Below, in pieces: positions 5,248 to 47,457 of a stretch of DNA of 50,528 nucleotides (position 1 is the stretch's first letter; each line of letters begins with the position of its first letter). The notes below the pieces were generated by a model that was given only the letters and a program-made list of their open reading frames with translations, had not been told where the DNA came from and ran no database searches. Source of the DNA: Candidatus Bathyarchaeia archaeon (lineage in GTDB: Archaea > Thermoproteota > Bathyarchaeia > Bathyarchaeales > Bathyarchaeaceae); contig JBAZEV010000002.1 in assembly GCA_041653695.1 (NCBI GenBank), forward strand, positions 1-50,528, in the 5' to 3' direction. Made by a program: the position numbers and the translations under genes.

Positions 5248-5368
5248 GATTGCCGGCCATAGGGCGTGGGATCCACCTGATCCCATTCCGAACTCAGAAG
5301 TTAAACCATGCTCCGTTTCCGGTGCTAGTGTGGTCTTCGGCCACGTGAACCCGGGAAAGCTGGCAATC
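5248..5368 (+). rRNA. 5S ribosomal RNA, not linked to a 16S/23S operon in this window
   Basis: The sequence contains GAUUGCCGGCCAUAGGGCGUGGGAUCCACCUGAUCCCAUUCCGAACUCAGAAGUUAAAC...GGGAAAGCUGGCAAUC. Helix 1 closes between 5248-5257 and 5359-5368, and the CCGAAC / AGUUAAGC-like loop motifs are conserved. Confidence 0.92.
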
Positions 5369-26567: not shown

Positions 26568-26570
26568 TTT

Positions 26571-28262
26571 TTAGACCTCCGCTTTAACTGGAATTGGATT
26601 TTGTGAATGTATGAATCCTTCTTGTATTGGGTAGTTCTCGTATTCGACTGTTACATAATCCTTGAATTTCCGCTGGATTTCACCTGTTGGATCAGCAGGC
26701 ATCTTTGTTTCAATGTCAACCCAGTAAGTTTTTCCGAAGACCTCTTTCAGGATTTCGCCATCTTTGGCTACAATCTCTCCGCCTTTAATTGTGTATGCCG
26801 TATTCTCAAACGCCTTTCTGGCTACAACAGATTCCTTAGCGATGTCAAGCCGTTCTGGGTTAATGTTAAAGATTGCAACATCAGCATCAGCTCCAACACC
26901 AAGGTGCCCTTTGTTTTTCATGCCTAACGCCTTTGCTGTTCCGGCACGTGTAACAACTGCAACCTCATACAGTGTATATTCGCGGTCAATTGTAGGTAGC
27001 AAGCTTTTTCGTTTTGCTCGTTTGTTTATTTTGTTAAAGATTTTCTCTCTTGCTTCGCGGCTGAATAACCACTCCAAAACCTTGGGGTAATTAGTGAACG
27101 GTCCACCGTTTGGATGGTCGGTTGTCATGAATATTTTCCATGGGTCTTTAACTAGAAGCGACATTTCAAGTCCGATTGACCATTGTATTGCATTTATCGG
27201 GCTTGTTCGTTTGTATCTGATTGGAACAATTCCACCAGATGTTTCTGCGCCTACATCATGGTTAATCCACTTGTTGCCAGTTAAGCTGGAAAGATAAAAC
27301 TGGGCTGGGCCATCAGCGGTCATCGTGGTTGTGTCTGTAAAGATTACCTGACCCGTATCCATTGTAACATGGTTGTGAGCATTCATATAATTTGACAATT
27401 CTTCTGCGCCAGAACCAAAAGATGTCCAATCATCACCACCGTATCCACAGAATTGGATATGAGTAATGTGGAGAATTGGTTTGTCATCTTTTGCTAAATC
27501 TTCTACTGCCTTCATTGTCTCTAGAGATGTTGCATAGTTACCAGGTTGTCCTAGCCTGTTTGTGTGAAGGTGTATCGTGTGAGGTAGATTAAGAAGTGTG
27601 TTGGCTTTGATTAATCCCCTAATGATTTCTCGTGGTGTTATTCCAAAGTTTGGTACAACATCATCGATACTTCGCATGTTGCGTCCAAAGCCCCAAGACT
27701 CCAAACCTCCAGGATTTACAACTTTAATAGCATACGCCCGTGAAGCTTTAAGCATCCACGCTAAGTGTGCAGCATTTTCTTTGATTAATCCATCTCTGAT
27801 GTTTTCTAGGCTGAACCACCAATCTCCTAACAGTGTGTATACACCTTTGTCTAACATTGGTGTATCAGCCAGTTCTTCGTGAACGTGACGTGCTTGCAGG
27901 GCAACAGTTGACGGAGCCATAGCGGTTGTGTAACCCATCTTGGAGTAACGGTAACCCGCTATGTATGTTGAGGGCAGTGAGCGCCCTGTTCCTAAATGTG
28001 TAATGGCTGTTTTAGCCACAACATCTTTGTAGTGGTCTTCTGGTCTCAGCATACGCGCTGTATCAACTTCACCACCCGCATAGTGACTGTGCATGTCAAC
28101 GCCTCCTGCCATTACGGTCAGGCCTGAAGCGTCAACGACTTCTGCTTTATCACTGACGGATTCTACAACTTTTCCGTCTCGGATGCAGATGTCCATTTTT
28201 TCTCCGTTTATTTTGTTCAGGGGGTCAAAGACGAAACCGTTTTTGATTATTAGTTCTTTCAT
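26571..28262 (-). CDS. fwdA: formylmethanofuran dehydrogenase subunit A (amidohydrolase fold)
   Basis: GGVDMHSHYAGG and HLHTNRLG metal-binding motifs, 563 aa, located between fwdD and fwdC. Confidence 0.88.
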   Translation of the reverse strand: MKELIIKNGFVFDPLNKINGEKMDICIRDGKVVESVSDKAEVVDASGLTVMAGGVDMHSHYAGGEVDTARMLRPEDHYKDVVAKTAITHLGTGRSLPSTYIAGYRYSKMGYTTAMAPSTVALQARHVHEELADTPMLDKGVYTLLGDWWFSLENIRDGLIKENAAHLAWMLKASRAYAIKVVNPGGLESWGFGRNMRSIDDVVPNFGITPREIIRGLIKANTLLNLPHTIHLHTNRLGQPGNYATSLETMKAVEDLAKDDKPILHITHIQFCGYGGDDWTSFGSGAEELSNYMNAHNHVTMDTGQVIFTDTTTMTADGPAQFYLSSLTGNKWINHDVGAETSGGIVPIRYKRTSPINAIQWSIGLEMSLLVKDPWKIFMTTDHPNGGPFTNYPKVLEWLFSREAREKIFNKINKRAKRKSLLPTIDREYTLYEVAVVTRAGTAKALGMKNKGHLGVGADADVAIFNINPERLDIAKESVVARKAFENTAYTIKGGEIVAKDGEILKEVFGKTYWVDIETKMPADPTGEIQRKFKDYVTVEYENYPIQEGFIHSQNPIPVKAEV

Positions 28263-28276
28263 TTCTCGTTTCCCTC

Positions 28277-28681
28277 TTACTTTGTTCTAAGCTCCGCAAG
28301 TACTTGGTCTATAGTTAGAACTTTTTCTGTGGGTGTTGGTTCGATTGTTCCAGTTACCCATTTTATTGACGGCATACCTGTTCCATGGGTTCGGTAATCA
28401 ACAATGTAGTTTACCCATGGACCATAACTGATGAAAACCCGTTTTGGATGTGGAAGTTCACGGGAAGTAACCGCCCGCAAAACTACGCTTCCAAATTGAG
28501 TGGTAAGTTTAACGTTGGAGTTTTCTTCAATGCCCAAAGTTTTCATGTCTTGGGCGTCAATTTTTACTTCGGTCACGTCTTTTATGTAAACATCTGATAA
28601 TTTTCCCATTTCTTTGCCTCTGCCTTGGTTAAGACTTCGACCGGTTAAAATCAAAACATCCATTTTTGGCAACATTATCAC
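28277..28681 (-). CDS. fwdD: formylmethanofuran dehydrogenase subunit D (molybdopterin dinucleotide-binding domain)
   Basis: The 134-aa product LILTGRSLNQGRGKE... is typical of FwdD/FmdD. It is the first gene of the fwdDAC-mch unit. Confidence 0.8.
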   Translation of the reverse strand: MIMLPKMDVLILTGRSLNQGRGKEMGKLSDVYIKDVTEVKIDAQDMKTLGIEENSNVKLTTQFGSVVLRAVTSRELPHPKRVFISYGPWVNYIVDYRTHGTGMPSIKWVTGTIEPTPTEKVLTIDQVLAELRTK

Positions 28682-31364: not shown

Positions 31365-32276
31365 TTGAGGTTACAAGCCTTGTCAAGCCGAAAAAATGTA
31401 ATAATATTCTTAGACACAGACAAATACGCAAGCCCTTTTGACATTTTAGTCGCCATTGACCTATATCCAGAAGCCCAAATCATCAGCTACAGCGGCGTTG
31501 AAGTCAGTGACGCACAACGTCTAATCCAAGACGCCATGTTCCCACGAGGACCTGACGGAGCAAAATTCACCAAAGTATTCATAGGCGGTCAAGACGTCGA
31601 AAAAGGCCTTGAAATACTTGAAGCAATAAAGAAATCCATGTTTCCACCATTCGAAATGTCTGTAATAGTTGACCCCCGAGGATCAAACACAACCGCATCC
31701 GCAGCGGTAGTAAAAACCCTGAAACTTTACGAAACAAAAGGATTCGGAGAAATCAAAGGAAAAACTGTAACACTTTTGGCAGGAACTGGACCCGTTGGTG
31801 TGGTTGCAGCAAGACTATACGCAAGTGAAGGCGCAAATGTTGTTCTTACTTCACGCAAACTGGACCGTGCCTTGGAAGCAGCAAACAAAATTAACGAAGA
31901 ACTTGGAACAAAACAGATATGTGGTGTCCAAGCAGCAACAGCAGAAGAAACAGGTAACTCCATCAAAGATGCTGACCTTGTTTTGGCATGTGGTGCTGCG
32001 GGAATTCAACTGTTGCCTATGGCGGTTCTTGAGAAATATGGAAAGAACGTCAAAGTTCTTGGAGACATCAACGCAGTTCCACCGTTGGGTATTGAAGGCT
32101 TGAAAGCAACCCAAAAAGACAAAGAATTTTCTCCTGGCAAATTTGGAATCGGAGCTCTGGCAATAGGTCCGCTTAAAATCCAAATTGAAGGCGAAATGTT
32201 CAAGCAGGCAGTTGAGTCTCCTAGCGGAATAGTGGATTACAAGACTGCTTATGCCCTAGGCAAAAAACTAGCCTAA
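31365..32276 (+). CDS. NAD(P)-dependent methylene-tetrahydromethanopterin dehydrogenase (MtdA/MtdB family)
   Basis: DTDKYASPFDILVAID...VFIGGQDVEKG...DPRGSNTTASAAV...GTGPVGVVAA resembles the methylotroph MtdA/MtdB layout. The start codon is uncertain. Confidence 0.7.
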   Translation: MRLQALSSRKNVIIFLDTDKYASPFDILVAIDLYPEAQIISYSGVEVSDAQRLIQDAMFPRGPDGAKFTKVFIGGQDVEKGLEILEAIKKSMFPPFEMSVIVDPRGSNTTASAAVVKTLKLYETKGFGEIKGKTVTLLAGTGPVGVVAARLYASEGANVVLTSRKLDRALEAANKINEELGTKQICGVQAATAEETGNSIKDADLVLACGAAGIQLLPMAVLEKYGKNVKVLGDINAVPPLGIEGLKATQKDKEFSPGKFGIGALAIGPLKIQIEGEMFKQAVESPSGIVDYKTAYALGKKLA

Positions 32277-32836: not shown

Positions 32837-33265
32837 GTGAACAGCTTAAAAACAAATGTAAATAAAACTGAAAAAGACTGGAAAAACGTTCTTTCGTCTG
32901 AACAATTTCATGTTTTGCGTGAAAAAGGAACTGAACCAGCGTTTACTGGTAAACTCTTGAAAAACAAGAAAACTGGAATGTATGTCTGTGCTGCTTGTGG
33001 AAACACGCTTTTCAGTTCTGACACAAAATTTGATTCGGGCACGGGTTGGCCAAGTTTCTGGAACGCTGTTTCTAAGGATAGTGTAGAACTAATAACTGAT
33101 AACAGTTTTGGGATGCACCGAACCGAGGTTACCTGCAAAAAGTGTGGTAGTCATCTGGGGCATGTGTTTGATGATGGTCCCGTGCCTACTGGTCAACGTT
33201 TTTGTATTAATTCGGTGTCGTTGGACTTTAAAGAGAATAAAGAATCTGCTGAAAAAACGAAGTAA
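32837..33265 (+). CDS. msrB: peptide-methionine (R)-S-oxide reductase MsrB
   Basis: The two CxxC pairs (CAACGN, CKKCGS) plus [16 protein letters not shown] and RFCINS are present. Confidence 0.92.
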
Positions 33266-33301: not shown

Positions 33302-34393
33302 GTGATAAAATTATCTTCTGTGTTGCATCAAAACCCGAGGAAAGTCAAAACTACCATGTTAACAAATGTTGTCGAACAACTCAAGATAACCCTATTCGGA
33401 AAAGACAAACGCTTTGTTTTGCAGACCTGCCTTTTTTTCTTGGCGTTTATTGTACCTTTGGTTATTCTTTACCGGTTTGATGCAGGGTCATTTGATTACT
33501 TGTGGAAAGGCAGAGCACCTTTCGTTCTGTTTTTGTGGTTGCTCGTTTTAGAGACCTCTCTGGGTTGGAAAAAACTCAAAGAAACTCCAACACTTACATT
33601 AAACCTGAAATCTGTTGTAACCTCTGTATTTCTGGTTCTGCCAACTGTTTACGCTGTTGCGTTAAACAACGGATTGTATGATGCTATCATAGAGCTTGGA
33701 CGCGTTGTTGGGGTTCCATCAGCACAGTTTGGCGAATGGTACCTGACCCATTCTTGGACGTTTTCGTTTGAATATGTCCTTTTTGCAACATTTTTTTTGG
33801 TTTCAATATGGCTTTTGTATGGACGTCTGGGGCTCAAAACCTTAGCTGTATCATCGTTCTTTTTGGCGGGTGTTGGCATATTCTATATGATTGACACGTT
33901 TTACCCATACGGGACATTCACTGTTTTGCAGTCGTTTGTTCCAGTAACCGTATTTTTTGCTTCTTCATTACTGAATCTGTTTGGATACGGAACACAAACA
34001 TTCCCCGGCGGAGCAGACGGACTTGGTTTAACAGTTTCATCGGCGACCAGTACCTACTCAGCTATTGTATCTTGGTCATGTGCCGGCAGCCACAGCCTAT
34101 TCATTTACTCTTTTATGATTATGCTCTTTCTCAGGGGAACCAACATAACGCGAACAAGAAAAATAATTTATGTTGTAACCGGTGCGCTTGGAACATTTTT
34201 TGTTAATGTACTCCGTATTGTGGCAATTCTATTAGCAGGAGTCAACAGTGGAGCCTCATTAGCTGCAACATTTCATGAATTTTATGGCGAATTCTTTTTC
34301 ATAGCTTGGATGTTCATTTACCTCTCTGTAATATACTTGTTAGAAACAAGGTTTCTTAGAAAGAACGTGAACACAAAAAATCTTCAGATATAG
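33302..34393 (+). CDS. archaeosortase/exosortase-family transpeptidase (polytopic membrane protein)
   Basis: About eight TM helices. The family catalytic signature is in the conserved order: Cys in SWSCAGSHS (34079-34081), Arg in FVNVLRIV and His in ATFHEFYG. The start may be the ATG at 33356. Confidence 0.75.
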   Translation: MIKLSSVLHQNPRKVKTTMLTNVVEQLKITLFGKDKRFVLQTCLFFLAFIVPLVILYRFDAGSFDYLWKGRAPFVLFLWLLVLETSLGWKKLKETPTLTLNLKSVVTSVFLVLPTVYAVALNNGLYDAIIELGRVVGVPSAQFGEWYLTHSWTFSFEYVLFATFFLVSIWLLYGRLGLKTLAVSSFFLAGVGIFYMIDTFYPYGTFTVLQSFVPVTVFFASSLLNLFGYGTQTFPGGADGLGLTVSSATSTYSAIVSWSCAGSHSLFIYSFMIMLFLRGTNITRTRKIIYVVTGALGTFFVNVLRIVAILLAGVNSGASLAATFHEFYGEFFFIAWMFIYLSVIYLLETRFLRKNVNTKNLQI

Positions 34394-34435
34394 TTCAGCC
34401 TGTTTAACCGCCCACAAAATTAACCAACATTTTGT

Positions 34436-35892
34436 CTAAGTAGTTTTTTCTGGTGCGCCTATTCTTTTTAGTGTTCCCCATTTCATTTCTCGTTTTGAGA
34501 GTATATCAAAAAGGCTCTTGATTTTGATGAAATTTCTTAGTTCCTTGAAGCCTACAACGAATAGTGGCGAATAAATTAGAAGTTTCATGTCTTCGTTGTC
34601 CATTTCCACTGCTAAGTAACTATATGTGGTTTGAATCAGCATAAAAACAAGCATCACAATTAGTGCTTGCATTCCATACCCCGTTAAAACTGCAATTGCG
34701 ATCACGATAATTGATACCACAGAAACGAACGGAACAAACACCATTGAAAGTAGTACATATTGGAACGTCAAGTTTCTCAAGTATCCAAATCGTGGATTTC
34801 CAAAAACATTTCTGTGTTTATTATTGTCTGGAATGTTCCTCTGTTCCATCTTGTTCTCTGTTTGATAAAATCTCTCCATGTGTTGGGGGCTTCGGTGTAA
34901 ACATAGGCGTCACTTAATGCTTGCACAACCCTTTTTGTTTTCAAAAGCTTGATCGTGACGTCAAAATCTTCGGTTAATGTATCCCTGTCGTAGAAGCCAA
35001 TTTCTTTTAAGCTTCGTTTCCGAAAAGAAGCTAATGGACCAGGAACCACTGGTACTACACCGAAAATGTCGAAGACCCTTCTGTAAATGTTTTCGTTGAC
35101 TATGTATTCAAGTGCCTGACATTTTGTTACCAAGTTTGTTCTGTTTAGAACCTTCACGTTTCCTGCCACTGCACTGATTGTTGGGTCTTGGAATCTGCTT
35201 ACGATTTTTCGAAGTGCTGATCTGGCAATCATGCTGTCTGCGTCACATGTTATGATGATTTCGCCATTTGCAATCAATATTCCAGTGTTTAATGCACCCG
35301 ATTTTCCACCTGCCTCGGTTCTACGAAGCACCTTTACTCCTTTTGATCTGTAACCCAATGCCAACTGGTACGTTCGGTCCGTGGAACCATCATCAACTAC
35401 TATGATCTCTTTTTTCAGGTAATCAATTTCTAAGATTGCGTCAAGACAACGTTCTATTCCTTTTTCTTCGTTGTGAGCTGGAACAACTAGGGTAACCAAA
35501 GGCCAATGTTGAATGGGCGTTAGGTTCATTTTCAATTCTAGATATCGATGGTATACGCAGAGTGGAAGTGCAAGATAATTTGAGAAAAACTCAACAGTTA
35601 AAGCCGTTGCAAGAAGTGCTGTTGCAATCGAAAGGTACCCAAGATACAACGTGAGCCAACCAACAATTACTGGAATTATGAGCATTGACAAAACCGCGAG
35701 TACTGTGATGTGTCTTGAAGGTTCCCTAATTTTGCTGTTATGAGCTTTCCGGGCAGCAAATAGAAAATATGAAGCCGCTGCGGCTCCTAGGATTAGGCAT
35801 ATCCATGCGATGTAACCTGGTATAACAAAAGCTACTAAAACCAGTTCACACGCTAACACAATAGCAGTTGCTATTAACTTTTTGTTATTCAT
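34436..35892 (-). pseudogene. processive family-2 glycosyltransferase (PgaC / cellulose-synthase-like) interrupted by a -1 frameshift or assembly indel
   Basis: ORF 34777-35892 carries DDGSTD, CDADS and QRTRWNRG, then stops. ORF 34436-34879, in the -1 frame, continues with KHRNVFGNPRFGY plus the expected C-terminal TM helices. The switch point is in the run ACAATAATAAACAC near 34815-34828. Confidence 0.65.
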
Positions 35893-35913
35893 GCCTTAAC
35901 GACCAAATTTTTT

Positions 35914-36930
35914 TCAAGTTTTTTGGCTGGCTTTTTTATCTTGGCTTTTTTCGGTTAATTGGGTGGCTTTTACTCCGAGTTTTAACATTTGAAGTCCACT
36001 TGTTGTTAGTTTGTAGTTATGTAACATGTCTATTCTTGTTTCTTCTAATGTGAATCGTCCGCTACATTTAGAACATCCAAATTTGAAGTTGGGTTGACCA
36101 AAGAAATGTTTGTTGGAACATTTGTACCAGTTTTCGATTTTTCTGTAGTCAACACCTATTACTTTGAGTTTTTTTTCACATTTGGGACAAACTAGTCTGC
36201 CTTCGCCGTTGTCGTATTTGGATCTGAAATCGATGTTGCCACAGTCGAAGTGTTCGAGTGCTTCTTCCTTAGTCATCTGGGAACTTTCACATTCAGGGCA
36301 CTCTAAATAGAGTGTAGATGTTACAACATCGCAGTCTGGGCAAACTATTACTGAACGGGAATGTTCTTCTTCTAAAATTTTTATTTCTGCGAAGCTTTTC
36401 AACGTTGGGACAAGTTGTTCAGTGGGGATTTCGCTTTCTGGGTTTGTTGTTAAAATATTTGTTGATTCTATTTGTATAACTGGGTTTTTAGCGAAAAGGT
36501 CTAGGATTGCTTTTGCTGTTTCGATGTTTACTGTTTCAGGTAACGCTGAGGCAAGTAATATTTCTTTGATGCTATCAATTAAACGTGTTGAGGCAATTTC
36601 ATCTTTGTTCATGTAATCTCGTATACCCAGTTTCATTGCTTCTACTGCAATGTTTTCGCTTCCTTTGCCTGTGACTAAAATAATCGGTGTTTTGTTGTGT
36701 TTTTTTTGTAGTTGTTTAACAACTTCGATGCCGGTCATGTCTGGCAATCTGTAATCCAAAATTATTATGTCAAAGTTTTCTTTTTCAAGTTTCGCTAAAC
36801 CCTTTGCAGCGGTGTCTGTGGCGGTTAACTCAAATTTGGTTGGCATCTTTTCGGTGAGTGAACGTTTTAGAATCAGTTGGTCGTCAGGGTTGTCTTCGAT
36901 ATGTAGTATTCGAATTTTCATTTCGGTCAA
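35914..36930 (-). CDS. response regulator: receiver domain plus Cys-rich (4 x CxxC) metal-binding output domain
   Basis: The REC motifs ILHIEDNPDD and DIIILDYRLPDMTG are present. The C-terminal half has CPDC...CPEC...CPKC...CSKC, as in the TACK-type output domain (named from memory). Confidence 0.75.
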   Translation of the reverse strand: MTEMKIRILHIEDNPDDQLILKRSLTEKMPTKFELTATDTAAKGLAKLEKENFDIIILDYRLPDMTGIEVVKQLQKKHNKTPIILVTGKGSENIAVEAMKLGIRDYMNKDEIASTRLIDSIKEILLASALPETVNIETAKAILDLFAKNPVIQIESTNILTTNPESEIPTEQLVPTLKSFAEIKILEEEHSRSVIVCPDCDVVTSTLYLECPECESSQMTKEEALEHFDCGNIDFRSKYDNGEGRLVCPKCEKKLKVIGVDYRKIENWYKCSNKHFFGQPNFKFGCSKCSGRFTLEETRIDMLHNYKLTTSGLQMLKLGVKATQLTEKSQDKKASQKT

Positions 36931-36952
36931 ATATTTCTTCCTCCTTATTTTT

Positions 36953-37396
36953 TTATGGTATTTTAGAAATCGTTAACCAGTAACGTTTGATTTCCATAAC
37001 TGCTTCAATGAAATCTTCAAAACTTGCTGGTTTTACAATGAAGCTGTTACATCCTAGTTTGTATGCGCGTTCTATATCTTCAGGTCTGCTCGAAGAAGTC
37101 AAAACAATTATTGGAATGCTTTTTAGTTTGTCGTCTCCTTTAATTGTCTTCAAGACTTCAAAACCGTCAATCTTTGGCATGTTCAAGTCCAATATTACTA
37201 AACCCGCTGTTGGGACGTCGATGTATTTTCCTTGTTTACGCAAGAATTGAATCGCATCTTCTCCATCTTCAGTAACGAAAACCTTGTTATGAATCTGAGA
37301 TTTGGTGAACGCTCTTTTGGCTATCATTACATCGTCTGGGTTGTCGTCAACTAACAGAATTGGTTGGTCTATTATAGACTTATTTTTATTTTCCAT
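36953..37396 (-). CDS. single-domain CheY-like response regulator
   Basis: The ATG at 37396 gives MENKNKSIIDQPILLVDDNPDD, and LVILDLNMPKIDG and IPIIVLTSS are present. The longer track ORF would overlap the kinase gene. Confidence 0.85.
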   Translation of the reverse strand: MENKNKSIIDQPILLVDDNPDDVMIAKRAFTKSQIHNKVFVTEDGEDAIQFLRKQGKYIDVPTAGLVILDLNMPKIDGFEVLKTIKGDDKLKSIPIIVLTSSSRPEDIERAYKLGCNSFIVKPASFEDFIEAVMEIKRYWLTISKIP

Positions 37397-37397
37397 T

Positions 37398-40300
37398 TCA
37401 TTCCTCCCCTGATTTTTTCTTTTCTTTTGGTATGTTGAACATGAATGTACTACCTTTACCGGGTGTACTCTCAACCCAGATTTTTCCTCCAAGTTGTTCT
37501 ACAATCTTCTTACAGATTGATAACCCCGCACCAGTTCCTTCATACTTCTTTTCAGTAGGGGCACGTTCGAAAAGGTCGAAAATAATGGTCTGATATTTTT
37601 CTTCGATACCTATTCCGTTATCCCGAACCTTGAACAAGTGTTCGTTTTCATTTTCCTGATACAAAACTTCGATTTTCGGAGTTTTCGACTCGTTAAACTT
37701 TAATGCGTTGCTGATTAGGTTCATGAATAGTTGCTTCATCCAAACTCTTTGAACAAGCAGAACTGGGAGTTTATCAACAACTATCGTTGTGTTATGTTCT
37801 TTAATTGTCATTTCAAGGTCAAGCTGAATTTCTTCTAGTATCTTATTCAGGTCTGTTTGTTCAAATTCAGTATATTTTCGTCCAACACGTGAAAGAACCA
37901 GCAAATCTTCAATCAAAGTATCCATGTGGGATGCCGCGTTTATCATCCTGTTTAGGTAATCTTTACCTGTTTCATCGAGCCTTTGTGCATAATCTTCTAG
38001 TATGAACGAGCCAAATGACCGTATTGTTCTCAGAGGAGCCTTCAAGTCATGAGAAACAACATATGTATAACTTTCAAGTTCCTTGTTCGACTGTTCCAAC
38101 TGGTGCATAGCCGCATCTATTGCTAATTGTGCCCTCTTTCGTTCAGTGATGTCTCGGTCAATGCTTAATATCGCAGGTTTTTGTTGGTATTTTATAAGCC
38201 CTGTGCTAATTTCAATCGGAATTTTTTTTCCGTCTTTGGTTTTGTGTGCTGTTTCAAAGACCAGTTTTTTGTTTTTTTTCACTGATTCAATAAGACCATT
38301 TATTTGTTCCGGAGTTAGGGCATCATCGATATCTAGAATTCCCATCGACAGCAATTCTTCCCTAGAATAACCCAAATTCTTTCCAGCGGCGTCATTGACA
38401 TCAATGAATTTGCCATCAAAATCAATAACCCAGACTGAGTCATTCATTGTATTAATTATTGCTCGATACTTCTCTTCACTATCTAGAAGTGCCTCTTGAA
38501 CTCTCTTTTGTTCAGTCACGTCCCTGAAGAAACCTATTAAAAATTGTTGGTTTCCGATTTTCATGAGTCTGGAACTGATGTCACAATAGATTACTGTCTT
38601 GTCTTTTCTTAAAATTGGTATGTTTCTACTAATAGATATTTTTCTCTCAATCTGTTTCTGGAACTGTTCAAGTGCAAAAGCTAAATCTTCTTTGGGAATA
38701 ATGTCAACAACAGTCAATTTGGGTAACTCGTCAAACGAATAACCTAGAATTTCGTAAATTCTAGGGTTGCCAAAAGCAAATTTCCGTGTTTCAGGATCGG
38801 CAGCAAGAATGCCGTCCGTTGCTCCCTCAAAGATTGTCCTAAATTTTAGTAAACTTTCTTTCAGTTCATTTTCCATTTTTTTGCGAGCTGTTATATCAAC
38901 GGACATTTCAGATGCTGCAACGATTTTTCCATGTTCGTCTCTGATTGCAGTTGCATTAACTTCTAACCAGATGTCTTGACCGTCTGGAGTTTGGACCAAT
39001 TGTTCGTGAATAACCCAGTCTTTTCCGGTCTCAAAAACTTCTTTAACTCCACATCCATGACAAACATCTTCTAACTGATTGAGTGATGAGTAACACTGTT
39101 TTCCTTCTATTTCACCCAAATATTTCTTTAGAACCGCATTTGCCCATAAAACAACATAATCCTTCGATACAACTACAAGCCCAGCATTAATATTGCCTGT
39201 AATATTTTCAAGCATGTCTCGATCCTGACGTAGCGCTTCTTCCACTTCTTTACGGTCACTAATATCTATGGATAATATGAAAAGACCTTCAGGCACGGGC
39301 TCTATGCTGAGTTTAAACCACGCATTCTCACCTGTAGAAAACGTAAATTCATTTTCTATACTTGCCGACACACGTTTTTTCATGCATCTGGTGAAAACCG
39401 AAAACAATTCGGACTTTTCAATTCCGGGATAAACGTCCATAATTGTTTTACCCAAAAAATCTTTTTTAACCAAGCGTCCATGCTTTGCGGCGGCATCATT
39501 AACATATAGATAATGCCAATTATAATCAACAATCTGACAGCCTTCCATCATACTTTCAAGAGTGCTCCGGAAACGTTCCTCAGACTTCTTGAGCAATTCT
39601 TCCGCTTTTTTGCGGTCAGTGATGTCTACAATTAATCCTCTTGAGCCCGCGGGTCTATTTCCGCTAATAATAGGAGTTGCGTGTATAATAATCGGAAATG
39701 TGCTACCGTCTTTCTTCAATGCAGTGTACTCAATAAAACCTACATCAGTTCCAGTCAATATTTTAGTAATTACTTTCTTGGCTCTGTTGCGATCCTTTTC
39801 AATCAGCATCTGAAAAGCAGTCAAACCTTTATCAAAATCATTCTGAGAATAACCAAAACGTTCAAACGCAACATTATTCACGAATGTGAGTCGTCCAGCT
39901 AAATCCATTTCAAAAACAATTTCAGGAAGTAACTCACTTAACTCTCTAAACCGCTTCGCACTATCCTGAAGCGCATCTTGTGCTTTCTTTTGCTCTGTAA
40001 CATCCTTGAGAAATGCTACTATGTATTGTTGGTTTTCGATATTCATGAATTGCGCAGAGATATCAACATAGATTCTTGTTTTATCTTTTCTCAGAATGGT
40101 TTGGTTCCTGACCATTTGTAGTTTTCCTGCCAACTGTTTCTGGAATCGTTCAACGGTCAAAGGTATCTCATCTTTGGGAACATAGTCAAGAATAGTTGAT
40201 TTGAGCAATTCTTCAAGAGGAGCACCGGTTATTTTGACAATTCTGGAATTAGCGAGAACAAATTTCATTGTTTTAGGATCTATAGCAGCAATGCCATCAG

Positions 40301-41915
40301 TTGCGCCCTCAAAAATTGTTTTGAACTTTCCTAAACTATCTTGTAACTTAAGTTCAATTTTCTTGTGCTCAGTTACGTCTCGAAATATAGCTTGAACTAC
40401 TTTCTTATCTCCAAGTTCAATGATGTTAGCTGTTATTGCAGCAGTTCTGATTTCTCCACTTTTTGTAATAATTGGGGCTTCCAGAATATCCCCTTTATTT
40501 TCTTTGACGCGCTGTCTGAAAGCTCTGCCAACTTCATCATTGGATTCTGGGGGATGAAGAATCTGCGAATTTTTACCAATTATTTCTGATTTTGTTCTGT
40601 CAACTAATTTTGTGGCTGCACGGTTACAATCAACTATTATTCCTGTTTTGGCATTAACCAAGAAAATAGCGTCCATCGTCTCCTCAAACTGCCTCCTGTA
40701 GCGCTCTTCTGATTCTCTAAGTTTTTGTTCCACATTCTTGCGGTCAGTTATGTCCCGTGTTATGCCTATAATCTCGATTTTTCCATCTCTTTCAACGGGT
40801 ATGGTGGATGCTTCAACAAAAACTAGCGTCCCATCCTTTTTCATCAATTCTAACTCGTGGAGCCCACTTATTTCTCCATGCATGTTTGGCTTGAACGCTT
40901 CCATAAGCGCTGGTACAGACTCTGGTGGAACAAGAATCCCCAACATGTTTTTTCCGAGTAATTCTTCCTTCTTGTAACCCGTTAATTCCTCTGCCTTTTT
41001 GTTACCATCAAGAAAAGTTCCAGCAATATCCTGCACCCAAATGGCTTCAGGAGCATTATCCAAAAAATATTTGAACCGTTCTTCGGACTCTTGAAGTTTC
41101 TTTTCTACTTGTTTCTGGTCAGTAATATCATGAAATATACCGAGGATTGCTGGTTTATCTTTGTAGATTATGCGTGCAGTACTCAATTGAAACAGTTTCT
41201 TTTTTCCATCTTTTGTAACTGCCTCAATGCGATGCGGCTCAACAAACAAACCCTTTTTTAGTTTCTCAAGATTTTTTGCCAAAATGGTTTTGCTCTCAAC
41301 CGTGGTGGCATGGGTGTTAAGAAAACTTCTTCCCACAAGTTCCTCTTTTGAGAATCCCAGTGTCTCTTCGACTGATTGTGAAATCTCTACAATATTTCCG
41401 TTCATTTCTATGATGACAACCGGCTCTTCCATGATTTCTAATAACGTGTCCAAATGTTGTTTTGACTGTTTAAGTTCCTCTTCCTTGCGTATAATGTCCG
41501 TGAGGTCTTTGCCTGTTGCTTGTGCTCCCACGTAGTCTCCTGATTCGTCAAAGACTGCAACCCCGTTCCATGCTACGGTTCTAAACCCTTTAGGGCTCTT
41601 TACTCGGAGCATGAACCCTTTAACTTGGTTCCGATTTTCAATCAGGCTTTGAAGCGTAAAAACTGCCTTTTTTACATCTTCTAAGTGTAAATAATTTGTG
41701 AAATGAGTTCCCAAAATTTTTTTTCGTGGTTTACCCCAAAACTCAACGGCGGCATCGTTAACAAAATTAAACTTTCCATCTTTATCGATGCTTACAACAA
41801 GGTCATGCATTATTGTTAGCATAATGAGAAGGTAGTTGTCTCTCATTTTTTGTACGTAATCTTCCCTGATTGTCTGTGCCTTCTTTTTCAATGGTTTCAC
41901 CGTAAATTTATCCAA
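37398..41915 (-). CDS. giant multi-PAS sensor histidine kinase (at least nine PAS/PAC modules, HisKA and HATPase_c)
   Basis: Repeated ...DITERKxAEE/DVTEQKK... PAC ends are present. The H-box is VVSHDLKAPLRTI, and the N/G boxes are FMNLISNALKF, DNGIGI and GTGAGLSICKKIV. Confidence 0.9.
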   Translation of the reverse strand: MDKFTVKPLKKKAQTIREDYVQKMRDNYLLIMLTIMHDLVVSIDKDGKFNFVNDAAVEFWGKPRKKILGTHFTNYLHLEDVKKAVFTLQSLIENRNQVKGFMLRVKSPKGFRTVAWNGVAVFDESGDYVGAQATGKDLTDIIRKEEELKQSKQHLDTLLEIMEEPVVIIEMNGNIVEISQSVEETLGFSKEELVGRSFLNTHATTVESKTILAKNLEKLKKGLFVEPHRIEAVTKDGKKKLFQLSTARIIYKDKPAILGIFHDITDQKQVEKKLQESEERFKYFLDNAPEAIWVQDIAGTFLDGNKKAEELTGYKKEELLGKNMLGILVPPESVPALMEAFKPNMHGEISGLHELELMKKDGTLVFVEASTIPVERDGKIEIIGITRDITDRKNVEQKLRESEERYRRQFEETMDAIFLVNAKTGIIVDCNRAATKLVDRTKSEIIGKNSQILHPPESNDEVGRAFRQRVKENKGDILEAPIITKSGEIRTAAITANIIELGDKKVVQAIFRDVTEHKKIELKLQDSLGKFKTIFEGATDGIAAIDPKTMKFVLANSRIVKITGAPLEELLKSTILDYVPKDEIPLTVERFQKQLAGKLQMVRNQTILRKDKTRIYVDISAQFMNIENQQYIVAFLKDVTEQKKAQDALQDSAKRFRELSELLPEIVFEMDLAGRLTFVNNVAFERFGYSQNDFDKGLTAFQMLIEKDRNRAKKVITKILTGTDVGFIEYTALKKDGSTFPIIIHATPIISGNRPAGSRGLIVDITDRKKAEELLKKSEERFRSTLESMMEGCQIVDYNWHYLYVNDAAAKHGRLVKKDFLGKTIMDVYPGIEKSELFSVFTRCMKKRVSASIENEFTFSTGENAWFKLSIEPVPEGLFILSIDISDRKEVEEALRQDRDMLENITGNINAGLVVVSKDYVVLWANAVLKKYLGEIEGKQCYSSLNQLEDVCHGCGVKEVFETGKDWVIHEQLVQTPDGQDIWLEVNATAIRDEHGKIVAASEMSVDITARKKMENELKESLLKFRTIFEGATDGILAADPETRKFAFGNPRIYEILGYSFDELPKLTVVDIIPKEDLAFALEQFQKQIERKISISRNIPILRKDKTVIYCDISSRLMKIGNQQFLIGFFRDVTEQKRVQEALLDSEEKYRAIINTMNDSVWVIDFDGKFIDVNDAAGKNLGYSREELLSMGILDIDDALTPEQINGLIESVKKNKKLVFETAHKTKDGKKIPIEISTGLIKYQQKPAILSIDRDITERKRAQLAIDAAMHQLEQSNKELESYTYVVSHDLKAPLRTIRSFGSFILEDYAQRLDETGKDYLNRMINAASHMDTLIEDLLVLSRVGRKYTEFEQTDLNKILEEIQLDLEMTIKEHNTTIVVDKLPVLLVQRVWMKQLFMNLISNALKFNESKTPKIEVLYQENENEHLFKVRDNGIGIEEKYQTIIFDLFERAPTEKKYEGTGAGLSICKKIVEQLGGKIWVESTPGKGSTFMFNIPKEKKKSGEE

Positions 41916-42227
41916 CTGTTTACACCCATTTGTTACGAATCGCCAATGAGAGACCGAATGTACATTGACCCACTTTAATCATACCGTCCATGTGCCGTCA
42001 GAGATTATTTACTTTTCGGTTTAAATGCAATCCTATAATGCTTTTAAGTTCAACAATGAACGAGCCAAAAAGGCCGTATCATGAGCATGCACTGAAAACG
42101 TTGTTTTTTTCAAAACAAAGAACTAAAAAACCATAACATCTAAAAGTATAAATGACGCTGAGAACATCAACAAATAGTTCCAGACCTGTTTCGAATTGGG
42201 ATGAAACAAAACTAATTGGAGCAAAAA

Positions 42228-43187
42228 ATGATGGCAGACCTTGAATTATTAAAAAAAGAAGGTAACGACTTAATTGTTAAAGTTCCCGGACGAGAAGACC
42301 CCGTAAAAATAGAGGACACATACGCAGAAATGTTCCCAATGTGGGTTGGGCGCGTACTAATAACCGCTGCAAACGAAAAATGGGCACTAATCGCAGCAAA
42401 AACTGCCACCGGATTTGCATCTTCAATTATCATGTCGCCCGCTGAAGCATCACTTGAACGTCTTGCAGACCCAAAAGAAACACCAGATGGACGTCCAGGT
42501 GCATATATCCAGATTTACCACAGCTCACGAGCAGCCCTAAAAGGGCAAATGGCTGCAAGAATTGGACAATGTGTTATGACTTGCCCAACAACAGCAGTTT
42601 TTGACGCTTTACCCAAAGCAAGACGAAGAGCGAAAATCGGAAGAACCCTACGTGTTTTTGGAGACGGCTTCCAGAAAAGTGATGAAATCGCTGGAAGAAA
42701 AGTTTGGCGCATCCCCGTTATGGAAGGCGAATTTGTTATCGAAAACGATTTTGGAGTCATGAAAGCCGTTGCTGGTGGAGCGTTGTTGCTTTTGGCAAAA
42801 GATTGGGAAACGGGACTTAAAGCAACCGAAAACGCCGTAGATTCTATAGCCAAAAACGTTCGCGGAGCAGTTATGCCCTTTCCGGGTCACATATGCAGGT
42901 CTGGGTCAAAAGTTGGTTCAATTAATTATAAGCTTCCTGCGTCAACAAATCAGTTGTACTGTCCAACTCTTAAAAGTCAAGTGCCAGACACTAAACTGTC
43001 AGCCGACGTTAACAGCGTTTACGAGATTGTAATAAACACCTTGAACTTGGATGTCATGAAAAAAGCGTTGGCTGAAGGAATAAAAGCCGCAGTTAAAGTT
43101 CCTGGTATTGTAAAAATTACTGCACCAAACTATGGCGGTAAGCTTGGTCCGTATAAAGCCGAACTAAAAGAAGCTTTGAATCTATAA
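42228..43187 (+). CDS. ftr: formylmethanofuran--tetrahydromethanopterin N-formyltransferase
   Basis: IEDTYAEMFPMWVGRVLITAANEKWALIAAKTATGFASSII is the typical Ftr N-terminal core. The ATG at 42228 is preferred over the TTG at 42216. Confidence 0.85.
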   Translation: MMADLELLKKEGNDLIVKVPGREDPVKIEDTYAEMFPMWVGRVLITAANEKWALIAAKTATGFASSIIMSPAEASLERLADPKETPDGRPGAYIQIYHSSRAALKGQMAARIGQCVMTCPTTAVFDALPKARRRAKIGRTLRVFGDGFQKSDEIAGRKVWRIPVMEGEFVIENDFGVMKAVAGGALLLLAKDWETGLKATENAVDSIAKNVRGAVMPFPGHICRSGSKVGSINYKLPASTNQLYCPTLKSQVPDTKLSADVNSVYEIVINTLNLDVMKKALAEGIKAAVKVPGIVKITAPNYGGKLGPYKAELKEALNL

Positions 43188-43204: not shown

Positions 43205-44248
43205 TTATTTTATCCTTTTTATGTATTCTTTGCCTTTGCCTTCAGCAGAACCGACTAATATTCGGTAATGTTGTTGGCTGTTTTCTTTTTCGTTTACTTT
43301 TTCCAGTTTGCCTTTTACCTGTATTGTTTCCCCGTTTTCTGCTATGCTATCATACAGTGTCTCGTAGGCAACTACCTCGGTAACGGGGTGCTGCTGTTTG
43401 CCTTCAATGAATTCTGCATCCTTTATTTTGTAAACTGCTGGAAGAAACAGTGAATCCGTGTTGTCTACTACAACTGCTCGGATTGTAACTTGACCCATTG
43501 GTGTGAACGTTTTTTGTCCATACCTTTCCGTTAATTCACTCTCGAGTTTAACTGGGTGAATGGAAACCCACGTATCCTCAAACCGTCCCAGATTCCATTT
43601 TCTTTCATAGATTCTCGAAGCTTCGTTGGCTGTGACTGGGTAATCCATGGTCTTTTTGTTGCTCCACTCTTCAAGCTGTTTTCCTTCTAACCGTTTGATT
43701 GGAGCTTTAGAACCCTGTTCGGTTAACGCGTTTTTTAGTTTCCAACTGTTTTTTGTGCCATAAACGGTTATGTCAATGTCTGAAAACTTTGGGTTATGAA
43801 TATCTAAAAGAAGTGAACCTGTTACTCCAAACATTTCCTGCTTTATGCCGCTTATTTGTTCCAGTTGCTGGGTGACGTTGACCAGTTTTTGTTGCAGTGA
43901 ATCTAACTGCTTTGTTTCTCTTAGTTGTGCAAGTTTTTGTTCAGGTTTGTAATGTGTTTTAATGTTTTGGAGCGGAACCGCAGTTACCGTGATGTTGTCC
44001 ACGGGTGAATGGAAAATGTACTGTGGGTAATTTTGTTTAAGGAAGTTGAATGTTTCCAGCAGGTTAGGTATCGTATATTTTTGGAGTATTCTGCTGAATT
44101 TTTCTTTGTCTGTTCCCCAGTTTCCCGTTTGCGAAGGTACATACTTGATGTAAGAAACTACCCTGTCGGGGGGATGCATTGTTCCGACTACGCAGAAGAA
44201 GAATCCCTCCTTTGTTTGAAGAAAATCCCTGTCCCTGAAGCTTCTCAT
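43205..44248 (-). CDS. pol-beta nucleotidyltransferase with OB-like C-terminal domain, paralog A
   Basis: The GS-x11-DxD motif FGVTGSLLLDIHNPKFSDIDITVYG lies at 43772-43819. The N-terminal module is RDRDFLQTKEGFFFCVVG. The C-terminal beta-rich segment ends KGKLEKV...YRILVGS. Confidence 0.7.
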   Translation of the reverse strand: MRSFRDRDFLQTKEGFFFCVVGTMHPPDRVVSYIKYVPSQTGNWGTDKEKFSRILQKYTIPNLLETFNFLKQNYPQYIFHSPVDNITVTAVPLQNIKTHYKPEQKLAQLRETKQLDSLQQKLVNVTQQLEQISGIKQEMFGVTGSLLLDIHNPKFSDIDITVYGTKNSWKLKNALTEQGSKAPIKRLEGKQLEEWSNKKTMDYPVTANEASRIYERKWNLGRFEDTWVSIHPVKLESELTERYGQKTFTPMGQVTIRAVVVDNTDSLFLPAVYKIKDAEFIEGKQQHPVTEVVAYETLYDSIAENGETIQVKGKLEKVNEKENSQQHYRILVGSAEGKGKEYIKRIK

Positions 44249-44289: not shown

Positions 44290-45003
44290 TTATGAATACG
44301 CAAAATAGGTTATCGCTATGGCAATCGCGTCATACAATCCATGCATCCACGCCAGTGCAGTGGTGTTCCGGTCTGTTCTTTGCCACATGTATCCCAGAAA
44401 TAGGCTGACAACCGTTACCGGGATTATAGACATCAAAGAGTTCAGTCCATGCAACAACCCGAACATTACTGACGCAACCACAAGACCAACTTTTGGTCCA
44501 TACGAATTTTCCAACCCTCTTTGAATAAAGCCCCTGAATGCTGCTTCTTCGGCTGGTCCAACTAACAAGAATGAGATTAAAAGTAACGCGATTAACTGCA
44601 GTGCATTTTGGGGTAATGTTGCGTCTAAAACTATGTCTGTTGATGGGTCTGGACCAACAATGGTTTCTTGGACTAACGCAATTGCTCCTCCGAGCCAAAG
44701 AAGTAGAACTGCTGCAATGGACAATATTATTATTGTTTTAATGTTTGGTTTTTTGAAGCCTAGCTGTTTTAGTCCTGCTTTGTGTTGTCTGGCGAGTAGT
44801 AACGTGATTGACAGTATTATCACTTCGTTTATTGGAAGCGATAATAATGCAGATGGAAACGGTAAGTTCTCTACGCCAAGTCCTGTTCCAAGCAGTATTA
44901 TTACTAGTATTATGCTGCCCACAATTAGTCCGACTGCTACAAATAGGTAACAGATGAATGCTGACTTGGCTTTCCAAAAAGGCGTGTTAGATGTGTTCTC
45001 CAT
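44290..45003 (-). CDS. CPBP-family (CAAX/Abi-type) intramembrane glutamic metalloprotease
   Basis: All three family motifs are intact: EEAAFRG, FGLLHG and MHGLYDA. Six to seven TM helices. Confidence 0.8.
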   Translation of the reverse strand: MENTSNTPFWKAKSAFICYLFVAVGLIVGSIILVIILLGTGLGVENLPFPSALLSLPINEVIILSITLLLARQHKAGLKQLGFKKPNIKTIIILSIAAVLLLWLGGAIALVQETIVGPDPSTDIVLDATLPQNALQLIALLLISFLLVGPAEEAAFRGFIQRGLENSYGPKVGLVVASVMFGLLHGLNSLMSIIPVTVVSLFLGYMWQRTDRNTTALAWMHGLYDAIAIAITYFAYS

Positions 45004-46412: not shown

Positions 46413-47456
46413 TTGAGGCTGGACTACGTGGCAACAAAAGATTGGATTCCCCGCGACGGTGAGACTCTTCTAACCAATGAAGGTTTTATTTTCTATGTTT
46501 TTGGGTATGAACACCCAGAAAACCGTGTTTTTGCGTTTCTGAAGTATATTCCCTCTGAGTATGCGCACCTGTTTCCTATTCGTTTTCTTAAACAGAAATG
46601 GAACCTAGACAGCAAGGAACTTTCTAGACCTGAAAAGCTTTACACGCCTCAAAATTACCAGAAGTTTTTGGAGACATTGCGTAACAGTTTTCCGCATTAC
46701 CTGTATTGCTGTCCGTTCCGGGGTAAAGAAGTTCTGAGTGTTCCGTTGAATCAGATTAAACGGGTGTATCTGCCTGGTGAATGTCTGCAGCGGATATTCA
46801 ACAAAGAGAGCAAGGATGCCATTCAGCAGGAGGCGGTTGATTTGGTTACGTTGTTATCAGAAGCCTCAAGTGTGCCTGTTGCGGAGTTTGGGATTCATGG
46901 TTCTGTTGGTTTGAATATGCATTCAGAGTATTCTGATATTGACCTTGTGGTTTATGGTTCTGAGAACTTCAAGAAGCTGGAAGATGCGGTTAACCGGTTA
47001 GCCGATGACGACGGCGTTTTTACGCATGTTTGTACCAAGAAGATTGATTTTGCTCGGCTGCATCGGGGACGTTACAACGACCGCCGTTTCGTGTATAATG
47101 CTGTACGAAAATATGATGAAATTGATGCTCCGCACGGTCAACTGAAGTACACACCTGTTAAACATGTTAACTTCAGCGCCGTGGTTGTAGACGACAAAGA
47201 GAACATGTTCCGTCCCGCAGTTTATCCAATCAAGAATTACCAACCAGACGATACTGATTCCGAGTTGTCTGCGGAACAGGTTCCAATTCATTTGTCATCG
47301 ATGATTGGTTATTACCGTAACGTTGCGCGGACTGGTGATGCTGTGAAGGTTTCGGGTAAGTTGGAGCGTATTGAGAACGTTGAAATCGGAGAAATAAGTT
47401 ATCACGTGGTTGTTGGTACCGCCACATGTGAAAAAGAGTATATTGAACCCCTTTAG
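46413..47456 (+). CDS. pol-beta nucleotidyltransferase with OB-like C-terminal domain, paralog B
   Basis: The motif [24 protein letters not shown] lies at 46899-46943. The architecture and length (347 aa) match paralog A. TTG start. Confidence 0.7.
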
Positions 47457-47457
47457 C

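Follow-up and report, generated by a model that had tools for sequence, protein, structure and literature searches.

Archaeosortase A of Haloferax and its PGF-CTERM substrates constitute the archaeosortase system that has been studied by experiment, and the substrates of thaumarchaeosortase carry a PEFG-CTERM signal. Our literature search on thaumarchaeosortase and PEFG-CTERM found no papers. TackOD1, an output domain of response regulators, has been described as having an "obscure" function, its known context being thaumarchaeal type IV pilus loci (PMC5847659, Galperin et al. 2018). The same paper reported a REC-wHTH-TackOD1 architecture (receiver, winged helix-turn-helix, TackOD1) and a resemblance of TackOD1 to double zinc ribbons, as well as fusions of a receiver to a BcsA-like glycosyltransferase in Methanobacteriaceae (MTH_548), which set a precedent for receiver control of a polysaccharide synthase (PMC5847659). 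Here we analyzed a 50,528-nt stretch of the Candidatus Bathyarchaeia archaeon contig JBAZEV010000002.1 (referred to as the window), in which a gene for an archaeosortase-family protein converges on a four-gene cassette. The cassette genes encode a histidine kinase (HK) with many PAS domains, a stand-alone receiver (REC), a REC-TackOD1 response regulator, and a family 2 glycosyltransferase (GT2) that resembles hyaluronan synthase (HAS) and PgaC. Our results suggested that the sortase and the cassette are probably two neighboring units, one core and one accessory, which are held together by lineage-specific synteny and do not form a single machine. They also indicated that the pairing of TackOD1 with the synthase is kept across archaea and bacteria, a modest but testable finding.

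A species-representative scan, with one genome per species, yielded 22 loci onto which the window proteins were mapped by tblastn, and 18 of these loci were informative. The backbone gene order was DinB-CysRS-Mtd-MsrB-sortase-[X]-Ftr-g43205-CPBP-AsnB, where X is a variable slot, and MsrB adjoined the sortase gene in 17 of the 22 genome loci. Slot X contained the four-gene cassette in 8 of the 18 informative loci (L001, L003, L005-L009, and L011) and was empty in five (L002, which is the complete genome of Candidatus Bathyarchaeum tardum, L010, L012, L014, and L015), with Ftr located 95 to 730 nt past the sortase. Just the last 75 codons of the GT2 gene were left as a deletion scar in L004, unrelated genes filled the slot in L013, L017, and L019, and in L018 no cassette and no Ftr turned up past the sortase. 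As for the first-pass annotation's proposal to check whether the neighborhood is conserved in relatives, the answer was mixed: the cassette adjoined the sortase in 8 of 18 species, and in the other 10, all of which had an intact sortase, an intact cassette was absent, with the slot empty, scarred, or occupied by other genes in nearly all of them. The slot between the sortase and Ftr is a hotspot of gene turnover.

Decay of the cassette was also seen in other loci. In L036, the HK and CheY-like genes were gone and the GT2 gene was frameshifted; in L049, the HK was cut to a 258-aa PAS stub, the CheY-like gene was missing, and the GT2 gene was truncated. Further intact cassettes were present in L050 and in eight metagenome loci. 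When the sortases were placed in a neighbor-joining tree, genomes with the cassette were interleaved with genomes lacking it: L002 was sister to L050, L004 was sister to the window, and the cassette-less L013 was placed within a cassette-bearing clade. Because of this interleaving, the simplest reading is that an ancestral cassette at one site was repeatedly lost or eroded while the sortase stayed intact. The idea that the cassette is a mobile island was rejected, since the cassette has no integrase or transposase, occupies one site throughout the clade, and left a scar and stubs that point to ancestral presence followed by loss. The window is from a Bathyarchaeum-type archaeon: all close homologs with an organism name came from Ca. 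Bathyarchaeota or Ca. Bathyarchaeum metagenome-assembled genomes, and the published description of Ca. B. tardum mentions neither its sortases nor the HK/REC/REC-TackOD1/GT2 operon. The unrelated genes in the slot differed from locus to locus and included genes for a TIR-like protein, a universal stress protein, and a tyrosine-recombinase-like fragment (L019, 6400-12300), AsnA-like, MFS, ParA, and PadR-like genes (L013, 11500-17900), and Fe-S/FAD oxidoreductase genes (L017, 11100-20600).

Outside the genus, the GT2 gene kept different company. GT2 homologs fell into three tiers of identity (75-88%, 59-68%, and 42-50%), and ten contexts were taken from the two lower tiers, with neighborhoods of 6 to 10 kb. 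In eight of these ten distant contexts (L025, L027, L029, L030, L031, L032, L051, and L052), a TackOD1 gene was located directly upstream of the GT2 gene and in the same direction, with gaps of 5 to 65 nt; it was missing only in L023 and L028, which represent one lineage. TackOD1 was also immediately upstream of GT2 in all of the cassette loci. A gene matching PF09721, the exosortase family, was found in none of the ten contexts within the 6 to 10 kb covered. Because eight of the ten distant contexts kept TackOD1 and none had a PF09721 gene, the constant unit, as judged from gene order, is TackOD1 plus the HAS/PgaC-like synthase, with variable inputs and with the sortase outside of it. The described context of TackOD1 is type IV pilus loci, whereas here, in Bathyarchaeia and in bacteria alike, it holds a fixed place upstream of its partner, a synthase gene. 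The complete order HK (with PAS domains), REC, REC-TackOD1, GT2 was present in the Dehalococcoidia locus L032, as well as in L050, L033-L046, and L025. L029 was identified as bacterial by its PriA, def, and bL19 genes, and the TackOD1 protein of L052 had no receiver. Genes for a CE4 polysaccharide deacetylase were adjacent in four of the distant loci (L029, L031, L032, and L051), as were a GlmS gene in two (L029 and L032) and GlmU-like genes in L029. When a five-sequence alignment of archaeal TackOD1 domains was searched against metagenomes, close relatives alone were returned.

Two side observations came from the distant contexts. In four of them (L029, 8127-9989; L030, 6007-7971; L031, 6428-7981; and L051, 4050-5993), TackOD1 was followed by one or two C-terminal Mrr_cat domains, which have a restriction-endonuclease fold, and in L052 (4414-5935) Mrr_cat was encoded by a separate gene; this combination is absent from the description of TackOD1 (PMC5847659). 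In L023 and L028 (4800-9000), the GT2 gene was near a 420-aa GT2 paralog (about 39% identity) and a GH2 beta-mannosidase-like gene, beside RNA polymerase genes.

In the window, the four cassette genes are on the minus strand. The HK gene (37398-41915) encodes a 1505-aa protein with 9 to 10 PAS domains, a HisKA domain (44.4 bits), and a HATPase_c domain (92.3 bits). No hydrophobic or transmembrane (TM) segment was found in the kinase, which is predicted to be cytoplasmic, and its L050 ortholog has a similar length (1502 aa). The stand-alone CheY-like receiver gene (36953-37396; 147 aa, ATG at 37396; PF00072, 84.3 bits) starts 1 nt past the HK stop codon. It is followed by the gene for the 338-aa REC-TackOD1 protein (35914-36930; PF00072, 80.1 bits with a cutoff of 30.2; PF18551, 96.4 bits with a cutoff of 32), which has the architecture of described TackOD1 response regulators. 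The intergenic gaps from HK to GT2 are 1, 22, and 21 nt, and the GT2 gene converges on the sortase gene with a 42-nt spacer. The first-pass annotation, all of whose open reading frames (ORFs) were recovered at the same positions, had seen here a tight minus-strand string of four genes that included a 1505-aa multi-PAS histidine kinase, a CheY-like regulator, and a receiver protein with an output domain containing four CxxC motifs. The short gaps and the gene order kept in relatives indicated that this string is a conserved operon, and the domain models agreed with the kinase and regulator assignments. The receiver of the third protein was real as well, and its output domain can now be named as TackOD1, a cysteine-rich zinc-ribbon domain. 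As in the Methanobacteriaceae REC-BcsA-like fusions, two-component input is tied to a cellulose-synthase-like glycosyltransferase in an archaeon; in contrast to these fusions, the receiver and the glycosyltransferase are separate proteins, with TackOD1 as the output domain between them.

The GT2 gene is broken in the window. It is split into two overlapping ORFs, 34777-35892 (371 aa, stopping just past QRTRWNRGTFQTII) and 34436-34879, both on the minus strand. The 5' part (34820-35892; PF00535, 123.9 bits) encodes four N-terminal TM helices and the GT-A domain with the motifs DDGSTD, CDAD, TED, and QRTRW, and the 3' part (34436-34819, -1 frame) encodes the C-terminal TM helices. The frameshift site is at 34817-34819, where the window has a run of three A nucleotides and eight orthologs have four. 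In L001, L003, L005-L009, and L011, tblastn placed both the N- and the C-terminal part in a single frame, and inserting one A at 34817-34819 produced a 485-aa GT2 ORF with 88% identity over 100% of the length to the intact orthologs (483-495 aa). As sequenced, the reading frame is not intact: the product stops at residue 371, after QRTRW, without the C-terminal helices. In HAS and BcsA, the C-terminal TM helices contribute to the translocation channel. The earlier identification of a GT2 with the QxxRW processivity motif stood, and the 1-nt deletion that breaks its reading frame had been missed. Programmed frameshifting was rejected because the site is a plain run of three A nucleotides with no slippery heptamer and all relatives read through four.

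The motif columns D, DxD, (T)ED, and QxxRW (DDGSTD, CDAD, TEDFD, and QRTRW in the window protein) were invariant in 38 homologs. The best NCBIfam match of the repaired GT2 was PgaC_IcaA (TIGR03937), at 177.8 bits with a cutoff of 422.3, and the distant homologs P0196 and P0202 also stayed below this cutoff (189-202 bits); the next models were the XrtG-associated glycosyltransferase TIGR03111 (113.6 bits, cutoff 363.95) and then NodC. The fold was examined with an intact ortholog, P0122 (87% identity), in place of the broken window gene. Its AlphaFold 2 model (mean confidence score [pLDDT] of 85.6) had four N-terminal helices and four C-terminal helices (365-463) flanking the GT-A domain, and the top Foldseek matches were hyaluronan synthases (TMq 0.63-0.67, root mean square deviation 3.2-4 Å, about 420 columns), with BcsA also matched. 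The GT2 is predicted to be a membrane-embedded processive synthase-translocase of the hyaluronan-synthase/PgaC type. Like PgaC/IcaA, NodC, and the class I hyaluronan synthases, it has about 485 aa, TM bundles on both sides of the GT-A domain, and the D/DxD/TED/QxxRW motifs. It differs from PgaC/IcaA in its subthreshold model score, in having TackOD1 as its partner instead of PgaD/IcaD or a cyclic di-GMP (c-di-GMP) module, and in the frameshift of the window gene. No PgaD/IcaD- or PgaB/IcaB-type partner genes were present in the window. Because genes for N-acetylglucosamine (GlcNAc) supply and for deacetylases adjoin the distant homologs, we infer that the product is most likely an exported GlcNAc-containing polymer. 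In a separate observation, PAS domains run straight into this GT2 (72% identity) in the 571-aa protein P0182, from a 2.3-kb contig. This may reflect a deletion that brought the PAS array of the kinase and the synthase together, or a chimeric assembly.

The sortase gene is on the plus strand at 33356-34393. The longest ORF begins at 33302, and the ATG at 33356 is the likely start, giving a 345-aa protein that matches database entry P0001. The protein passed both exosortase signature models (TIGR04178, 49.6-49.8 bits with a cutoff of 23; PF09721, 38.3 bits with a cutoff of 25.7), its hydropathy profile contained seven hydrophobic segments, and C242, R287, and H307, in the motifs SWSCAGSHS, NVLRIV, and FHEFYG, were invariant across 24 homologs. 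These results agreed with the earlier archaeosortase call, which had been based on the Cys/Arg/His motifs, and the protein is a predicted member of the exosortase/archaeosortase superfamily. A profile search of the Protein Data Bank (PDB) with the sortase found no solved homolog. For all 24 members tested, the best named subfamily was thaumarchaeosortase (TIGR04297; best E value among the 24 relatives, 2.2e-38), but the window sortase scored only 104.6-104.8 bits against a cutoff of 250. The scores for the other subfamilies were below their cutoffs as well: 33 bits for ArtC (cutoff 100), 22.7 for XrtX (170), 17.3 for XrtA (208), and 17 for XrtG (102.75). Because about 105 bits is far short of 250, the sortase was placed apart from thaumarchaeosortase, in what its sequence indicates is a distinct Bathyarchaeia subfamily with thaumarchaeosortase as its nearest relative. 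The subfamily is well populated, with more than 120 clusters at 65-82% identity. The first-pass annotation had asked whether the sortase belongs to a subfamily with a known and different cognate signal; in the model scores it did not, the thaumarchaeosortase cutoff being unreached.

Two surface proteins encoded elsewhere in the window carry a shared C-terminal tail. Protein 1 (1120-4656, plus strand) has a signal peptide, PQQ-type beta-propellers, immunoglobulin (Ig)-like domains, and an IPMEYIYA-TM-KKRK tail (4561-4653; 55.7 bits with the tail hidden Markov model [HMM]), and protein 2 (16929-19790, plus strand) has the same architecture and a VPLEYIYA-TM-KKRK tail (19695-19787; 45.5 bits). 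Both have an N-terminal signal-like segment, and their genes are located 29 kb and 13.5 kb from the sortase, with housekeeping genes between. A word-indexed protein search with an alignment of the two tails found nothing. When a 36-column tail profile was compared to 1.84 billion representative proteins, 54 clusters were matched (E≤1e-3), almost all at the extreme C terminus. The consensus was G-[IL]-P-x-E-Y-[IV]-Y-A, followed by an 18-residue helix ending in AY and by K[KR][RGK]K, and about 45 of the 54 clusters had the proline 28 to 30 residues from the C terminus. The passengers were nearly all PQQ-propeller/Ig-like proteins with signal peptides, with P0293 as the one exception. The three tail-bearing proteins with an organism name were all from Bathyarchaeota, and the ortholog of protein 2 (P0241/P0295) is named Ca. 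Bathyarchaeota.

The tail has the tripartite CTERM form, in which a protein with an N-terminal signal peptide ends in a motif, a single TM helix, and a cluster of basic residues. The two tail-bearing surface proteins reported earlier were confirmed, and their tails are shaped like a C-terminal sorting signal. Curated CTERM models were not reached by the tail: GG_III-CTERM scored 18.9 bits (cutoff 22) and PEF-CTERM scored 15.3 bits (cutoff 23), both on the helix part alone, and 12 tails searched at E≤1 to 10 gave no PEFG-CTERM match, although HMMER filters may hide weak matches to such a short model. Curated models of subfamilies and signals cover neither the sortase nor the tail. The IPxEYIYA tail appears to be a real, recurrent C-terminal signal outside of the curated models, and it is plausible that it is a new sorting signal for this sortase subfamily, an assignment that fits the tail's form. 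Recognizing this archaeosortase subfamily of Bathyarchaeia, together with its candidate signal IPxEYIYA, is an incremental advance. Two points weigh against this assignment: the proposed link between sortase and tail comes from form and taxonomy, and large surface proteins encoded just upstream of the MsrB-sortase pair in L010 (5517-8552), L011 (5864-8491), and L017 (7073-8899) have other TM tails (such as GGPGW...KRRAR and IPETPAY...RKQK). Since the tails in these three loci differ, Bathyarchaeum surface proteins use more than one tail type.

Compared to thaumarchaeosortase, the window sortase is similar in coming from a TACK-group archaeon and in having the exosortase signature and Cys/Arg/His residues, and the candidate tail resembles thaumarchaeosortase signals in opening with a Pro/Glu/aromatic motif before a TM helix and a basic end. 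The low TIGR04297 score and a tail, P-x-E-Y-[IV]-Y-A, that reaches no curated CTERM model set the pair apart. The expected chemistry is that of archaeosortase A and PGF-CTERM, in which a polytopic cysteine enzyme strips secreted surface proteins of their C-terminal TM anchor. The differences from that system are a different signal motif, ArtA and ArtC models that the protein does not reach, and the fact that the pair is known here from sequence alone. Two large secreted proteins, each with a TM anchor and a basic end at the C terminus, flank a distant sortase homolog (37% identity) in L021 (5535-11149), from Ca. Bathyarchaeota bin28, and may form another sortase/signal pair with it. The notion that the tails of these flanking proteins are a P-x-E variant was dropped because the tail HMM matched none of them.

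The first-pass annotation had read the sortase, the GT2, and the kinase with its regulators as one regulated envelope module, an archaeal counterpart of bacterial exosortase/exopolysaccharide (EPS) loci. In this model, the sortase would process the PxEYIYA propeller proteins, which would be attached to or assembled with a matrix polysaccharide made by the synthase, as has been suggested for bacterial XrtA/PEP-CTERM/EPS and XrtG systems. Among known systems, XrtG comes nearest to this proposal, and the XrtA-PrsK/PrsR loci come next. The resemblance to the XrtA-PrsK/PrsR and XrtG loci is that the sortase adjoins a PgaC-like GT2 and a two-component system and that CTERM-type proteins are encoded in the genome, in this case within the same 50-kb window. 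Several further points count in favor of that proposal and against our reading of two units. The cassette adjoined the sortase in every Bathyarchaeum-clade contig that was long enough (8 genome loci, 8 metagenome loci, L049, L050, and the window), so a clade-specific functional tie keeps a low probability. The bacterial XrtG system, which pairs a Firmicu-CTERM protein and XrtG with two XrtG-associated, PgaC-like GT2s (PMC12854382), shows that pairings of exosortases and GT2s exist, and the XrtG-associated glycosyltransferase model was the second best for the window GT2, which also matched an XrtP-associated glycosyltransferase model below threshold. In addition, our count of cassette losses is based on a neighbor-joining tree of one protein. 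On the other hand, the adjacency was inherited once and does not reflect independent events, it is confined to one genus-level clade, and it disappeared repeatedly in genomes that kept the sortase, as in the 10 of 18 informative species with a sortase and no intact cassette. The two units are convergent and for this reason are not co-transcribed, and the ten GT2 contexts from outside the genus had no exosortase gene, whereas eight had TackOD1. The scores for XrtG and for its associated glycosyltransferase were far below the cutoffs, and the locus differs from XrtA (EpsH) loci in having a TackOD1 output domain instead of an NtrC-type PrsR, an apparently soluble kinase instead of a PrsK-type membrane kinase, and no PEP-CTERM match. 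Of the defining features of the bacterial systems that were tested, none could be established here. The one-module proposal and the analogy to exosortase/EPS loci were not upheld, and we consider a single module improbable. A more specific version, which we regard as similarly improbable, is that the two units co-operate in Bathyarchaeum: the sortase would cut the IPxEYIYA tail and either link the propeller proteins to, or arrange them on, a GlcNAc-type polymer produced by a TackOD1-gated synthase. If so, the locus would specify an archaeal protein-polysaccharide envelope layer under two-component control, whose polymer branch has been repeatedly lost in some species. Our reading remains that of two units whose adjacency is probably a matter of synteny.

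Within the cassette, the action of REC-TackOD1, the identity of the GT2, and the state of the GT2 gene each allowed more than one explanation. For REC-TackOD1, we favored direct, phosphorylation-dependent binding of TackOD1 to the synthase over transcriptional control and gave it an even chance, because TackOD1 has a fixed operonic place by a membrane machine in two unrelated contexts, because the receiver fusions provide a precedent, and because no DNA-binding family was matched. Neither structural approach spoke for this idea: a PDB profile search with TackOD1 returned generic zinc-ribbon noise and no solved homolog, and an AlphaFold model of REC-TackOD1 built from the single sequence was too poor to use (pLDDT of 37). 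A tentative alternative is that REC-TackOD1 is a DNA-binding transcription factor, built from a wHTH-like segment and zinc ribbons, that activates the GT2 gene or the operon with no enzyme contact. The segment before the cysteine cluster does align to a helix-rich, wHTH-like stretch, the published REC-wHTH-TackOD1 architecture and likeness to double zinc ribbons (PMC5847659) point the same way, and the bacterial versions carry Mrr_cat domains, which are often nucleic-acid binding. However, no DNA-binding Pfam family was significant on the window protein, and the regulator gene is inside the operon, 5 to 32 nt upstream of the enzyme gene, in archaea and bacteria, with TackOD1 also found in the loci of another membrane machine, the type IV pilus, which is typical of partner proteins. 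The REC-glycosyltransferase fusions, moreover, show direct receiver control of such synthases (PMC5847659). As for the GT2, it might be a non-processive or lipid-directed transferase that acts in N-glycan or glycolipid synthesis, like crenarchaeal PcManGT, and not an EPS synthase. PcManGT (6yv7) was the top PDB match by sequence (E value, 1.2e-18) and third by fold, and all of the curated EPS-synthase models were unreached. This explanation seemed unlikely to us, in that the fold matches to HAS and BcsA extend over 420-530 columns and take in both TM bundles, whereas the PcManGT match is partial (TMq 0.57); the QxxRW, TED, and DxD motifs are all there; and the GlmS, GlmU-like, and CE4 deacetylase neighbors in distant loci make up a toolkit of the poly-GlcNAc (PNAG)/chitin type. 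The loss of a base from the synthase gene means either that the module is decaying in this organism or that there is a sequencing error. A homopolymer assembly or sequencing error, which would leave the cassette fully functional here, was given slightly less than an even chance. It would account for a single base missing in an A run in a gene that is otherwise intact and 88% identical to its orthologs, next to HK and response regulator genes that are full length compared to L050. No other split gene was seen in the approximately 17 kb compared with relatives, but a run of three or four A nucleotides is short for systematic homopolymer error. Erosion of the cassette is real in independent assemblies (the L004 scar, the frameshift and gene loss in L036, and the truncations in L049), and because the same cassette decayed independently elsewhere, a real mutation is plausible.

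Taken together, we propose the following for the two units. The sortase, a core gene of Bathyarchaeum-type archaea, would remove the C-terminal membrane anchor from secreted surface proteins and re-anchor them, by analogy with ArtA and PGF-CTERM, and the best candidate substrates would be the PQQ-propeller/Ig proteins with the G-[IL]-P-x-E-Y-[IV]-Y-A tail. Separately, the soluble multi-PAS kinase, judging from its domain content, would sense a cytoplasmic cue and phosphorylate the stand-alone receiver and REC-TackOD1. REC-TackOD1 may then switch on the synthase-translocase, which would polymerize and export a polysaccharide that is probably GlcNAc based.

Bathyarchaeia rank among the most abundant archaea in sediments and have barely been cultivated. 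The sortase subfamily and the new C-terminal signal on propeller proteins point to proteins that are likely displayed on the surface of these cells. TackOD1 is a widespread output domain of TACK archaea and also occurs in some bacteria. Its fixed place across domains in one operon with a HAS/PgaC-like synthase offers a first testable role for TackOD1. If TackOD1 is indeed a phospho-switch for polysaccharide synthesis, it would take the place that c-di-GMP and PilZ have in bacteria. The locus also calls for caution, as the adjacency of "envelope" genes in one genus can be inherited synteny around a variable slot and not a functional module.

The genes around the interval have core functions and include those for aminoacyl-tRNA synthetases, eRF1/Pelota, Mch, Fwd subunits, DinB, CysRS, Mtd, MsrB, and Ftr. 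The MsrB (SelR) gene (32837-33265, plus strand; PF01641, 177 bits) is the upstream neighbor of the sortase gene and was used only as a marker of backbone synteny. The Ftr gene (42216-43187, plus strand; matches to Pfam FTR and FTR_C) forms the far border of the variable slot. Genes of the tetrahydromethanopterin (H4MPT) C1 pathway are spread over 24761-28681 (minus strand), 31365-32276 (plus strand), and 42216-43187 (plus strand), and they encode Mch, FwdC-like (GXGXG), an FwdA-like amidohydrolase, an FwdD-like molybdopterin-binding protein, Mtd, and Ftr. These scattered genes fit the H4MPT Wood-Ljungdahl pathway of Bathyarchaeia. A 5S rRNA gene stands alone at 5249-5368 (plus strand; Rfam RF00001, 74.6 bits), as the window has neither a 16S nor a 23S rRNA gene, and the 50 kb yielded no tRNA genes.

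The window also contains a family of paralogs of about 350 aa, encoded at 43205-44248 (minus strand), 46413-47456 (plus strand), 47410-48540 (plus strand), and 21027-21740 (minus strand). These proteins had at most a weak NTP_transf_2 (nucleotidyltransferase) signal and matched no NCBIfam model, and in relatives the AsnB-like gene is followed by two more tandem copies (about 30% identity). A gene for a CPBP/Rce1-like intramembrane protease (44290-45003, minus strand), and so for a further membrane protease close to the sortase, is located three genes past the cassette slot and is kept in most relatives.

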